A DNA stretch of 35,959 bases from Candidatus Amesbacteria bacterium RBG_19FT_COMBO_48_16 (GTDB lineage: Bacteria > Patescibacteriota > Microgenomatia > CAZETR01 > Amesbacteraceae), in contig MEXE01000037.1 in assembly GCA_001775555.1 (NCBI GenBank), positions 1-35,959 on the forward strand, read 5' to 3'. A model generated the notes under the pieces. It was not told where the DNA came from and searched no databases. It saw only the letters and a list, made by a program, of their open reading frames with translations. Shown piece after piece: positions 8,658 to 17,724 of this stretch. A program made the translations under genes and the position numbers. How positions within the stretch are numbered: the first letter of the stretch is position 1; the number at the start of each line of letters is the position of its first letter.

Positions 8658-9896
8658 CTACTTCCGGGGAGTGATTTTGTCGTGACCCATGTAGGGGCGG
8701 AGGACTTCGGGGATGGTGACCGAACCATCAGCGTTTTGGTAATTTTCCAGGATGGCCAAGGGGGTGCGGGAAGTGGCTATAGCGGTACCGTTTAACATAT
8801 GGATAAAATCGATGGCTCCGTTTTGGCGCTTGAACCTAATGTTTAAATTCCTGGCTTGGTAATCAGTACAATTGGAGGTGGAAGTGACTTCCCCGTAGTC
8901 ACCCCGGGTGGGCATCCAGGCCTCGATATCAAATTTTCTGGCGGCCATGCCGCCCAAGTCCCCGGTGCACATTTCCAAAACCCGATACGGCAAACCTAAG
9001 GCCTGATATATTTTTTCTTCCATATCCAAAATATGTAAATGATATTTGTCGGATTCTTCGGGGGTACAGTAGATAAACATTTCGGCTTTGGTGAATTGAT
9101 GGACACGATATAAACCCTTGGAGTATTTACCGTAGGCGCCTTGTTCCTGGCGGAAGCAGTGGGAATAACCGATATATTTAATGGGAAGGTTTTGAACGGG
9201 TATTATTTCATCGGCATGTTTACCGGCCAGAGTAACTTCGGCTGTGGCAATTAACCCGAGGTCTTCGCCTTCGATGGTATAGGTCTGGGCTTCATTGCCT
9301 TTGGGCATGTAGCCGGTACCTAAATAGTATCGGGCTTTGGCCAGGTCCGGGGTGATAACCGGCAGGAAACCTTCTTTCTGCAATAAATCAAAAGTAAACC
9401 GGACCAGAGCCAGTTCTAATAGTGCGCCGTCACCGTACCAGTAGTAAAACTGGGAGCCAACTACTTTGGCCCCGGTAACGAAATCCAAAATATTTAGATA
9501 TTTACCCAATTCCAGATGATCCTTGGGCTGAAAGTCAAATTTGCGGGGGACTCCCCACTTTCTGACTTCGACATTCTCTGTTTCGTTTTTACCAAGCGGA
9601 GCTTCGGGTCGGGGGAGGTTGGGAATTTGACTTAATATTTCTTCCAATTGAGATTTTGTCTTATCTGCTTCCGACTCAATTTGCTTGAGCTCGGTTTTAA
9701 GTTTCTTACCCTCGCCTATCTGATCTTTGGTAAGGGCATTGCGGGAAGCGCGCAGGGTTTCACTGGTATGCAGGTGCCGGCGATACTGAGTGTCCAGTTT
9801 TTGTGCCTGGTCAACCAGGTCGGGATCGTAACCTTTGGCAGACACACCTTTTTTTACCAGGTCGGATTGTTCGCGAATTAGCTTGATGTCTAACAT
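8658..9896 (-). CDS. serS: Serine--tRNA ligase
   Basis: MLDIKLIR N-terminus, LIATAEV, FRQEQG..GLYRVHQF.K.E, STSNCTDYQAR, LNGTAIA. Confidence 0.99.
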   Translation of the reverse strand: MLDIKLIREQSDLVKKGVSAKGYDPDLVDQAQKLDTQYRRHLHTSETLRASRNALTKDQIGEGKKLKTELKQIESEADKTKSQLEEILSQIPNLPRPEAPLGKNETENVEVRKWGVPRKFDFQPKDHLELGKYLNILDFVTGAKVVGSQFYYWYGDGALLELALVRFTFDLLQKEGFLPVITPDLAKARYYLGTGYMPKGNEAQTYTIEGEDLGLIATAEVTLAGKHADEIIPVQNLPIKYIGYSHCFRQEQGAYGKYSKGLYRVHQFTKAEMFIYCTPEESDKYHLHILDMEEKIYQALGLPYRVLEMCTGDLGGMAARKFDIEAWMPTRGDYGEVTSTSNCTDYQARNLNIRFKRQNGAIDFIHMLNGTAIATSRTPLAILENYQNADGSVTIPEVLRPYMGHDKITPRK

Positions 9897-9916
9897 AATT
9901 TAATCTTAACAGTAAT

Positions 9917-9941
9917 AAAAAAACTCGCAAATGTTTGCGAG
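9917..9941 (-). terminator. Intrinsic terminator of the serS T-box leader
   Basis: CTCGCAA-ACAT-TTGCGAG followed by T7 on the minus strand. Confidence 0.9.
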
Positions 9942-10012
9942 CTGCGGTTTCAGGTGCCACCTCAACTAATACTTAATTTGGAAGCTGTTACGGGCTGACC
10001 CGGGCTACTTCG

Positions 10013-10031
10013 CCCTTCGACAAGCTCAGGG
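10013..10031. repeat. Dispersed palindrome CCCTTCGACAAGCTCAGGG, copy 1 (inside T-box Stem II)
   Basis: 19/19 identical to 17704-17722. Confidence 0.9.
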
Positions 10032-10091
10032 CTATGAAGCCAGCATCGTCCGATGGAATTCGGACTCAAGCGCTTTTTTAACTTAGAGCGT

Positions 10092-10120
10092 ATTTTAATC
10101 CTTTTGCAAGGGTTGATCAA
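10092..10120 (-). promoter_or_regulatory. Promoter of the T-box/serS transcript
   Basis: TTGATC-17 nt-TAAAAT; the -10 reuses the upstream TAA stop; predicted start about 10 nt before Stem I. Confidence 0.7.
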
Positions 10121-10637
10121 GCGTCAAACTGGGTGCCGATTTTCTTTTTTCTCTTTTCCTAAATGCCTGGTCATTTTCCATGGCAATTATTCTTATTCTA
10201 TCTAAAATCTCTCCTGGTACAGCCGCCAGAGACGGAAAATTTAAGGTGTTTAAAGCTCCCGTAAAACCGTATTGAATACACCATTCCATGGCTTTTATTT
10301 CTTCTTGAGAAGGATAAAAATTAGCAGACATATGACCTGCGTTTGGATTTTTTGGCATAGAATCGGAAATGGCAATCGCAGCTTCGGTAAGTTTAAATAA
10401 ATAGGAAGCAGGGCCTAAAAGAGCATTCGGATCATCCCGAACTACAAACCTGGCTGTTCGGGCTTCATCGATAAGAACTTGAATTGCTCCAATTTGTAAT
10501 ACCGCAAGACGGACCGGCCCTAAAGCAGGATAAATTTCTGCCGTTAAATTATCGATATTTCCAGCGCCCACATCTTTTCTTGCGTTTTCAACCTGCTGAT
10601 TGTAAGTTAATTCTGAAGGTGGTTCCTGTTCGGCCAT
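10095..10637 (-). CDS. Hypothetical protein
   Basis: 180-aa ORF; TATAAT 8 nt before the ATG; no recognised motif. Confidence 0.7.
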   Translation of the reverse strand: MAEQEPPSELTYNQQVENARKDVGAGNIDNLTAEIYPALGPVRLAVLQIGAIQVLIDEARTARFVVRDDPNALLGPASYLFKLTEAAIAISDSMPKNPNAGHMSANFYPSQEEIKAMEWCIQYGFTGALNTLNFPSLAAVPGEILDRIRIIAMENDQAFRKREKRKSAPSLTLDQPLQKD

Positions 10638-13374: not shown

Positions 13375-13447
13375 GGCCCCATCGTCTAGTGGCCTAGGAC
13401 ACCAGGTTCTCATCCTGGTAACCGGGGTTCAAATCCCCGTGGAGTCA
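13375..13447 (+). tRNA. tRNA-Glu (anticodon CTC), CCA not encoded
   Basis: Cloverleaf: CCAGG-TTCTCAT-CCTGG anticodon arm, CGGGG-TTCAAAT-CCCCG T-arm; acceptor GGCCCCA/TGGAGTC has a C4-A69 mismatch; TG-G-TAAAAT upstream. Confidence 0.92.
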
Positions 13448-13514
13448 CAAAATCCCCTGTTTCCAACCTTTAGAAAAAAGTATAGGTTGATAATTAACAG
13501 AATTTAAACAACTT

Positions 13515-17630: not shown

Positions 17631-17703
17631 GGCGCTATCGTCTAGAGGCCTAGGACACCAGGTTCTCATCCTGGTAACCCCGGTTCGAATCCGGGTAGCG
17701 TCA
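17631..17703 (+). tRNA. tRNA-Glu (anticodon CTC), CCA not encoded
   Basis: Acceptor GGCGCTA/TAGCGTC, anticodon arm CCAGG-TTCTCAT-CCTGG, T-arm CCCGG-TTCGAAT-CCGGG. Confidence 0.95.
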
Positions 17704-17722
17704 CCCTTCGACAAGCTCAGGG
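17704..17722. repeat. Dispersed palindrome CCCTTCGACAAGCTCAGGG, copy 2
   Basis: Abuts the tRNA discriminator base and lies 2 nt from the convergent stop codon; identical to 10013-10031. Confidence 0.9.
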
Positions 17723-17724
17723 TT

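Follow-up and report, generated by a model that had tools for sequence, protein, structure and literature searches.

The serS leader of contig MEXE01000037.1

The window, by which we mean the whole stretch of DNA analysed, is the 35,959-nt contig MEXE01000037.1 of assembly GCA_001775555.1. It carries serS on its minus strand, and the subject of this report is the leader of that gene, at 9917..10120 (-). A preliminary description had read this leader as a T-box riboswitch with an ultrashort Stem I and a terminator, and the strings it quoted are all found on the minus strand of the interval in the order it gave: a promoter-like site, Stem I, Stem II, a Stem IIA/F-box hairpin, the T-box core and a run of seven uridines (U7). 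The analysis confirms that description in part and supports its core interpretation. As far as sequence comparison can tell, the leader is almost certainly a T-box riboswitch, and we regard it as likely that it is a serine-specific T-box with an ultrashort Stem I, acting most probably by transcription attenuation. Its parts are collected in Table 1.

Table 1. Parts of the serS leader and its gene, with positions in the window.
Feature	Position	Strand	Remarks
Promoter-like site TTGATC-17-TAAAAT	10120..10092	-	9/12 consensus matches
Ultrashort Stem I, 33 nt, K-turn-like base	10074..10042	-	sequence indexing and R1 alignment
Stem I base helix, 4 bp	10074..10071 with 10045..10042	-	followed by a 3-nt bulge and tandem G.A/A.G
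Stem I upper helix, 6 bp	10065..10060 with 10053..10048	-	
Stem I apical loop AUUCCA, 6 nt	10059..10054	-	
Specifier UCC (Ser codon)	10057..10055	-	conserved purine A at 10054
Stem II	10041..10003	-	AGUA on 3' side
Inserted hairpin module capping Stem II	10032..10012	-	same-genus relative G001 lacks the module
Stem IIA hairpin with F-box-like CCCGUAA	10002..9988	-	
Conserved single-stranded linker AAAUUAAGUA	9979..9970	-	stands where the Stem III region would be
T-box core GGUGGCACC		-	UGGC at 9959..9956
Antiterminator helix A1, 5' strand GUUGAGG	9966..9960	-	directly 5' of UGGC
T-box loop, 12 nt	9959..9948	-	begins with UGGC, no A2 helix
Antiterminator helix A1, 3' strand CCGCAGC	9947..9941	-	
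Terminator hairpin, 9-bp stem and 4-nt loop	9943..9922	-	U7 at 9923..9917
serS	8658..9896	-	Pfam Seryl_tRNA_N and tRNA-synt_2b; ATG at 9896

The promoter-like site is weak when taken alone: 6 sites of the same quality occur in 2.5 kb where 3.4 are expected, and this one (10092..10120) overlaps the 3' end of an upstream open reading frame (ORF) at 10095..10637. It lies ~20 nt from the AGCG of the K-turn base, a distance that, judged by eye, is like the one seen in other T-boxes of the family, where the TTGACA/TATAAT sites are stronger. At the other end, serS starts 20 nt past the U-run.

Evidence for a T-box riboswitch

The Rfam model of the T-box, RF00230, does not find this leader even at E<=10, as the preliminary description had suspected of standard models; at the gathering cut-off (93 bits) the window is without a match. 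Run at E<=10 on the own 912-kb genome, RF00230 gave three sub-threshold matches, on contigs C25, C11 and C17, with the serS leader not among them. The C25 match (locus L001, 54.7 bits) is a Tyr-type leader with a long Stem I. The C11 match (37.8 bits, E 2.7e-7) was made in the 3' half of the element, the Stem I of the model having collapsed to a 27-nt insert; its design is that of the serS leader, with AGCG at the base and a hairpin of 6 bp whose loop has 6 nt. Past Stem I the element continues with a small Stem II and a IIA/F-box hairpin, after which come a T-box core of canonical form and a terminator. The C17 match (20.6 bits) has the same type of hairpin, its loop carrying CAC+G, and the core of this element has UGGG. 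Across 27 genomes of the family, RF00230 matched in 20 at E<=1e-3 and in none above the 93-bit cut-off, and none of the 42 places listed is a serS leader.

A covariance model named R1 was built from eight Arg-type ultrashort 5' domains (alignment A3), with a structure specified by hand (base helix, Stem I, Stem II and IIA) and no serS sequence in the seed. Two MAFFT alignments, A1 and A2 (not to be confused with the helices of those names), had Stem I out of register in several rows; they were dropped and replaced by the Arg-only A3 and a model-based alignment, A4. On the window, with filters off, R1 matches 9982..10079 (-) at 39.7 bits (E 9e-9), and the next match stands at 14.5 bits. On the own 912-kb genome the serS leader is the second of three matches at E<=5, with 43.1 bits and E 2.7e-8.

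Alignment A4 holds 37 R1 matches, two of which (L084:594-666 and L055:2488-2575) are not ultrashort leaders. In A4 96.4% of cells pair, as against 33-45% with the partners slid, all 17 pairs have changed on both sides, and the covariation score was not attained by any of 500 shuffles. Both sides have changed in 6/6 pairs of the 6-bp helix of Stem I and in 4/4 pairs of Stem II (helix 3), and 97.7% of the cells of Stem IIA (helix 4) are paired.

These results bear on the alternative that a hairpin, a GGUGGCACC word and a terminator just happen to precede serS. It draws on the fold of the whole leader, which is not unusual (z -1.65) and is uninformative, and on a loose regular expression for the T-box core, which finds 72 places in the genome; a search with that expression plus a U-run was mostly noise and was abandoned. 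The two E values of R1 speak against chance, as do orthologous leaders in 13 other genomes. Its probability is close to nil, and in our view the R1 matches and the covariation have already refuted it.

Serine leaders in related genomes

Seryl-tRNA synthetase (SerRS) was found in 28 of 31 relatives, and 14 leaders are linked to serS, which lies in the operon of each. Half of them stand directly before serS (window, G009, G011, G012, G002, G003 and G063); the other half (G001, G018, G013, G004, G016, G008 and G033) precede a gene for a 204-211-aa histidine-phosphatase-like protein, with serS immediately after it. All 14 carry UCC+A in the loop at the tip of Stem I and have UGGC as part of their core. 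At least nine versions of the hairpin stem occur among them, the SerRS proteins of the 14 genomes are ~30-80% identical to that of the window, and the linker reads AAUYRAGYA in every leader, whatever follows it. Together with the R1 match and the covariation of Stems I, II and IIA, the presence of UCC+A and UGGC in 14/14 leaders leads us to a T-box with an ultrashort Stem I and its specifier in the apical loop, as had been proposed.

The agreement of codon, discriminator and gene that was part of the same proposal also holds. A tRNA-Ser(GGA), with an anticodon complementary to UCC, is present in the own genome, and the tRNA-Ser genes there have G after the acceptor stem (G73), three of the four as parsed by script and the fourth by eye.

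A separate observation concerns the histidine-phosphatase gene that lies between the Ser leader and serS in seven genomes (L071:817-1437, with homologues in L072, L080, L073, L084, L078 and L089). The G001 copy, the one copy run on Pfam and NCBIfam, matches Pfam His_Phos_1, and its best NCBIfam matches include the phosphoserine phosphatase PspA, below the cut-off. Its sequence suggests that this gene may encode a phosphoserine phosphatase co-regulated with serS.

Loop codon, discriminator and downstream gene

The preliminary description had proposed checking whether the loop codon tracks the downstream amino acid in homologs. It does so in all 36 testable ultrashort elements, where the loop codon plus purine fits the downstream gene (Table 2). 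Testable here means an ultrashort element read from its locus, with an operon gene that names one amino acid; matches listed without loci, which are 12 of 42 for RF00230 in the family, 1 of 31 for R1 in the family and most of the R1 scan of the class, stand outside the count.

Table 2. Loop codon, core and gene in the 36 testable ultrashort elements.
Gene or type	Elements	Loop codon and purine	Core	Remarks
Ser	14	UCC+A	UGGC	serS in operon
valS	4	GUC+A	UGGU	NCBIfam
ileS	4	AUC+A	UGGU	
aspS	3	GAC+A	UGGC	
glyS	2	GGC+A	UGGA	
proS (1) and proB-like (2)	3	CCC+G	UGGU	proB below cut-off
Arg leaders	4	CGC+purine	UGGU	argS 1.1-2.7 kb downstream, same strand
tRNA-His gene	1	CAC+G	UGGG	
tRNA-Trp gene	1	UGG+A	UGGU	

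Three further elements (L059, L178 and L180) fit as well, with the gene judged by eye from its N-terminal sequence. Outside the 36 are also eight Arg-type leaders without argS inside the locus, and L075, L095, L055, L090, L094, L083, L079 and L179; in L075 a His codon stands before an M20 peptidase gene. The UGGN of the core fits the discriminators of the own genome (Ser G, Arg A, His C, Val A, Ile A, Gly U, Pro A and Cys U). No tRNA-Asp was found in the own assembly; its discriminator is presumably G73, which matches the UGGC of the aspS leaders. Within the loop, codon and purine abut the 3' side, with 0-1 nt after them and at least 2 nt before, and we read the specifier loop as resembling an anticodon loop.

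Some of these leaders lie upstream of genes whose link to the amino acid is less direct. Arg leaders (CGC, UGGU) precede a 445-466-aa protein without a Pfam or NCBIfam match at L002:147-1484 (-, contig C11 of the own genome) and at homologous positions in L042, L056 and L061; other genomes have small ORFs after the leader, GNAT-like ones among them. In four genomes (G009, G011, G031 and G005) argS follows the Arg leader, at the distance given in Table 2, so the 445-466-aa protein is probably arginine-related. In the own assembly argS was not found (best 18 bits). Its absence probably reflects a gap in the assembly, which is 90% complete, as 24 of the 27 family genomes do have argS; contig C11 ends ~1.2 kb past the 445-aa ORF. 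The idea that the 445-aa protein replaces arginyl-tRNA synthetase was rejected in view of these points and of argS downstream of the Arg leader in four genomes.

Pro codons (CCC+G or CCG+A) precede a 111-118-aa protein with a CsaA-like tRNA-binding domain in L055, L090 and L094 (G013, G126 and G082). The leader in L095 (G067) has UGC+A and UGGA, which fits the U73 of tRNA-Cys in the own genome, and precedes a BshB1-like deacetylase (71 bits, below cut-off); this arrangement hints at Cys-linked control of thiol biosynthesis.

T-box leaders are also found directly upstream of cognate tRNA genes. L003 (C17:26407-26754, -, in the own genome) has a His leader with CAC+G and UGGG before tRNA-His(GUG), L047 (G015) has a Trp leader with UGG+A before tRNA-Trp(CCA), and L035, L036 and L037 (G006, G013 and G037) have Tyr leaders with a long Stem I before tRNA-Tyr(GUA). 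We know of no T-box that gates a tRNA gene, the literature not having been searched for that point.

Host and spread

The nearest named relatives of the SerRS are from Candidatus Amesbacteria (80% and 78% identity), Beckwithbacteria and the Microgenomates group, and the own genome is 0.91 Mb in size. Both agree with the host proposed in the preliminary description, a member of the Candidate Phyla Radiation (CPR) or something like it. R1 matched at E<=0.01 in 20 of 27 genomes of the family. At E<=1e-4 it matched in 45 of 151 genomes of the class (44 of 150 without the unpublished G093) and in 14 of 151 genomes of the phylum, ten of these outside the class; valS leaders with GUC+A account for two of the loci outside the class.

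The preliminary description had also placed the leader in a hybrid class. The CPR-like setting stood up to analysis. The notion of a one-off hybrid did not: to judge by these matches, the serS leader is one member of a large clade-wide class that serves many amino acids, is widespread in Microgenomates-like bacteria and is often linked to a terminator. We lean, with modest confidence, towards a broader proposal. Patescibacteria (CPR) would carry a large undescribed class of minimal T-boxes in which a ~33-nt hairpin with an anticodon-loop-like specifier loop replaces the whole of Stem I. The class would serve at least 10 amino acids, commonly with an intrinsic terminator, and would sense tRNA co-transcriptionally without contact to the elbow, a contact regarded as essential in transcriptional T-boxes. 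Some members stand before a cognate tRNA gene, and there the tRNA may gate its own transcription.

Antiterminator, terminator and proposed mechanism

The canonical register gives a better antiterminator than the one drawn earlier: the predicted helix A1 has 7 bp with one A.G mismatch and closes the 12-nt loop that holds UGGC. Between leader groups, positions 1, 4 and 7 of A1 switch from G-C to C-G (or U-A), and the mismatch is kept at position 5; the support for A1 consists of these between-group changes, since shuffles of single sequences were not significant. The register given earlier for the antiterminator, GAG/CUC plus UG/CA, does not survive: it comes to +2.1 kcal/mol and is broken in G009, which has CAC for CUC. 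Nor could the earlier Stem III (9978..9964) be upheld. It forms 48 of 70 pairs overall, with 4-5 of 5 in the seven terminator-type relatives and 1-3 of 5 in the other seven, it shows no compensatory change, and its 3' arm overlaps A1. In G004 a hairpin is inserted in the UGGC loop, where A2 would sit.

The terminator of the window is predicted at -11.4 kcal/mol and is followed by U7. A GC-rich hairpin with U6-U8 is kept in 7 of the 14 Ser-type leaders, with differing stem sequences and compensatory changes, and from this we infer a transcriptional mode. In two of the seven (G018 and G016) the 3' strand of A1 is itself the 5' arm of the terminator, and the two folds fully exclude each other. 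In the other five (window, G001, G013, G009 and G004) only 2-3 nt are common to A1 and the terminator. As a crude measure, a U run of at least 5 lies within 130 nt past UGGN in 31 of the 44 elements examined.

The remaining Ser-type leaders show other designs. Six have no hairpin with a U-run: L005, L029, L078 and L089 (G002, G003, G008 and G033), and L006 and L008 (G011 and G012). All of them retain Stem I and the linker together with UGGC, A1 and a short A2 (3-4 bp), and in G002, G003 and G033 the distance between Stem I and the ATG is only ~105 nt. The 3' strand of A1, GCGGAAG, stands 9-14 nt before the start codon in these leaders, and by eye no sequestrator helix is evident. In the seventh, the serS leader in L093 (G063, from another family), the complete T-box helix lies between the two arms of the hairpin with the U-run. 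The 5' arm shares nucleotides with the conserved linker and the 3' arm directly precedes U6; the terminator here surrounds the antiterminator instead of standing after it. The expression platform is thus not uniform.

Put together, these parts suggest the following mechanism for the window. Transcription would start near 10085, the K-turn-like base and the 6-bp hairpin would fold on the nascent RNA, and the 6-nt loop would offer UCC+A to the anticodon GGA of tRNA-Ser. The codon-anticodon helix would be buttressed by Stem II and Stem IIA/F-box, which would replace the tRNA-elbow platform, as in the actinobacterial ileS leaders. If the tRNA-Ser were uncharged, its 3' GCCA would pair with UGGC and stabilise the weak A1, and A1 would then occupy the bottom 3 nt of the terminator stem and let RNA polymerase proceed into serS. 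With charged tRNA, or with none, the 9-bp hairpin and U7 would form, and transcription would stop at ~9917. The binding of tRNA, the sensing of its charge, the terminator as the regulated step and the tRNA-dependent read-through are all inferred from sequence.

Several points weigh against this reading. Rfam returned no T-box match for 9850..10200 at E<=10. The covariation comes from an alignment fitted to the model, with rows from related genomes, and a counter-example to the codon rule could sit among the matches listed without loci. A2 is absent from the leader in the window, and there is no conserved Stem III among the 14 Ser-type leaders. A1 alone is worth only -4.0 kcal/mol, and in the test on single sequences 453 of 500 shuffles reach 6 of 7 pairs in the window, with no leader being significant. 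The nucleotides shared in the window, 9943..9941, are the last 3 of the A1 3' strand and the first 3 of the terminator stem; a residual 6-bp hairpin (-6.6) can coexist with A1, for a total of -10.6, and the full terminator comes to -11.4. From secondary structure alone, then, mutual exclusion is not demonstrated in the window, where an antiterminator/terminator switch is plausible as modelled. Lastly, six of the 14 Ser-type leaders have no recognisable terminator and the G063 leader has a different design.

Part of this evidence would also fit a genuine T-box whose regulated step is something other than intrinsic termination, such as translation initiation, RNA stability or Rho-dependent termination, with the hairpin and U7 serving as a constitutive or leaky terminator or as a stabilising structure. 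The six terminator-less leaders with a kept T-box core point that way, and so does the coexistence of the 6-bp hairpin with A1 across their 3-nt overlap. Ultrashort Stem I T-boxes are moreover described as translational in PMC7583486 and bioRxiv 10.1101/2023.02.28.530422. In the window, however, no sequestered Shine-Dalgarno sequence is found, and the 20 nt from U7 to the ATG lie outside any predicted helix. The seven leaders that keep a GC-rich hairpin and U6-U8 with compensatory changes, two of them with full exclusion of antiterminator and terminator, argue for termination, as does the crude U-run count. We consider this alternative unlikely.

It is less probable still that the leader is a decayed or non-functional T-box relic, in which promoter and terminator bracket a structured leader, or end an upstream transcript, without any sensing of tRNA. 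The lack of A2, of Stem III, of the distal platform of Stem I and of an Rfam match would suit such a relic. A relic, however, would not keep the specifier loop, UGGC and the linker while its stems covary, and these elements are unchanged in 14 genomes across the SerRS divergence given above; the same reduced design also serves many other amino acids with matching codons. Transcription attenuation by a serine-specific T-box stays our preferred reading of the leader.

Other features of the window and the genome

The module that caps Stem II belongs to a small hairpin family of the form YUGAGC, 2-4 nt, GUCGAAR, flanked by complementary sequence and perhaps containing tandem G.A pairs. It occurs 10 times in the genome, where 0.8 are expected from shuffles: in the window at 10012..10032 (-) and at ~17706..17724, the latter adjoining the tRNA-Glu gene at 17631..17705, and elsewhere on contigs C2, C7, C13, C25, C29, C42 and C44. 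In other T-boxes (C25 of the own genome, G004, G126 and G085) the module is found in the position of A2. It may be mobile or protein-binding. The tRNA-Glu(CUC) gene just named is one of two in the window, the other lying at 13375..13448; both are on the plus strand, 4.2 kb apart.

Meaning of the class

Ultrashort leaders with terminators, for many amino acids, challenge the kinetic argument for a long Stem I and offer a natural test case for it. Annotation based on Rfam misses or under-scores such elements, as shown by the 27 family genomes without a match at the cut-off. The loop codon labels genes of unknown function by amino acid, examples being the 445-aa protein (Arg), the CsaA-like protein (Pro) and the histidine-phosphatase gene that may be co-regulated with serS. 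With a length of ~105-190 nt, the leaders are also attractive as minimal parts for tRNA-responsive switches.

Comparison with known systems

A literature search for T-boxes in combination with the Candidate Phyla Radiation, Patescibacteria or Microgenomates, which did not extend to supplements or to the majority of subscription journals, returned nothing, and none of the literature it found on truncated Stem I concerns such organisms. The TBDB class II model was, according to PMC7778990, applied to Actinobacteria and to class I matches with truncated Stem I, and a prior listing in the TBDB supplements (class II, truncated-Stem-I entries) may bear on novelty.

The nearest described systems are the ultrashort Stem I ileS T-boxes of Actinobacteria (Sherwood, Grundy and Henkin 2015, as cited in PMC7583486 and bioRxiv 10.1101/2023.02.28.530422). 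According to PMC7583486, the Stem I of most translational T-boxes is intermediate or ultrashort in length, Actinobacteria are where translational T-boxes have mostly been identified, and a long Stem I is generally required by transcriptional T-boxes (section 6.2). The long Stem I and its elbow-binding platform are tied to transcriptional control, as a means of fast tRNA capture before RNA polymerase reaches the terminator, in both PMC7583486 and bioRxiv 10.1101/2023.02.28.530422; the latter has the ultrashort class regulate ileS and respond to tRNA-Ile only.

As these sources describe it, the actinobacterial ultrashort class resembles the serS leader in its short Stem I, with the specifier in the terminal loop and then a purine, in the lack of a distal double-T-loop platform, in keeping Stem II and IIA, and in the use of UGGN to read the 3' end of the tRNA. 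It differs in that it is described as translational (by Shine-Dalgarno sequestration), restricted to ileS and mostly actinobacterial, whereas here the gene is serS, a hairpin and U7 are present and the host is a Microgenomates-like CPR bacterium. The design found here also serves Val, Ile, Asp, Gly, Pro, Arg, His, Trp and Cys. The K-turn-like base is kept here, and A2 and Stem III are missing, in a comparison made from published descriptions.

The leader has several features of the class I T-box (RF00230): a K-turn-like GA motif at the foot of Stem I, AGUA in Stem II, the IIA/F-box, a core of the form GGUGGNACC whose N complements the discriminator, a terminator predicted to have 3 nt in common with the antiterminator, and an aminoacyl-tRNA synthetase gene downstream. 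Its specifier is in an apical and not an internal loop, however, and ~60 nt of distal Stem I, with the AG bulge and the distal loop, are absent. UGGC lies in a 12-nt hairpin loop without A2, where class I has a 7-nt bulge between A1 and A2, and there is neither a conserved Stem III nor an Rfam match.

The Tyr T-box on C25 gives a comparison within the same genome. It has the T-box core, the terminator logic and the small hairpin module (there in the A2 position) in common with the serS leader, and differs in its full-length Stem I, internal specifier loop and distal platform and in its RF00230 score; both architectures thus coexist in one genome. By its proposed mechanism and by most defining features the serS leader is a T-box, and it is probably new as a variant, since it departs from class I in its architecture and at the Rfam cut-off and from the ultrashort class, as defined so far, in gene, mode and host.

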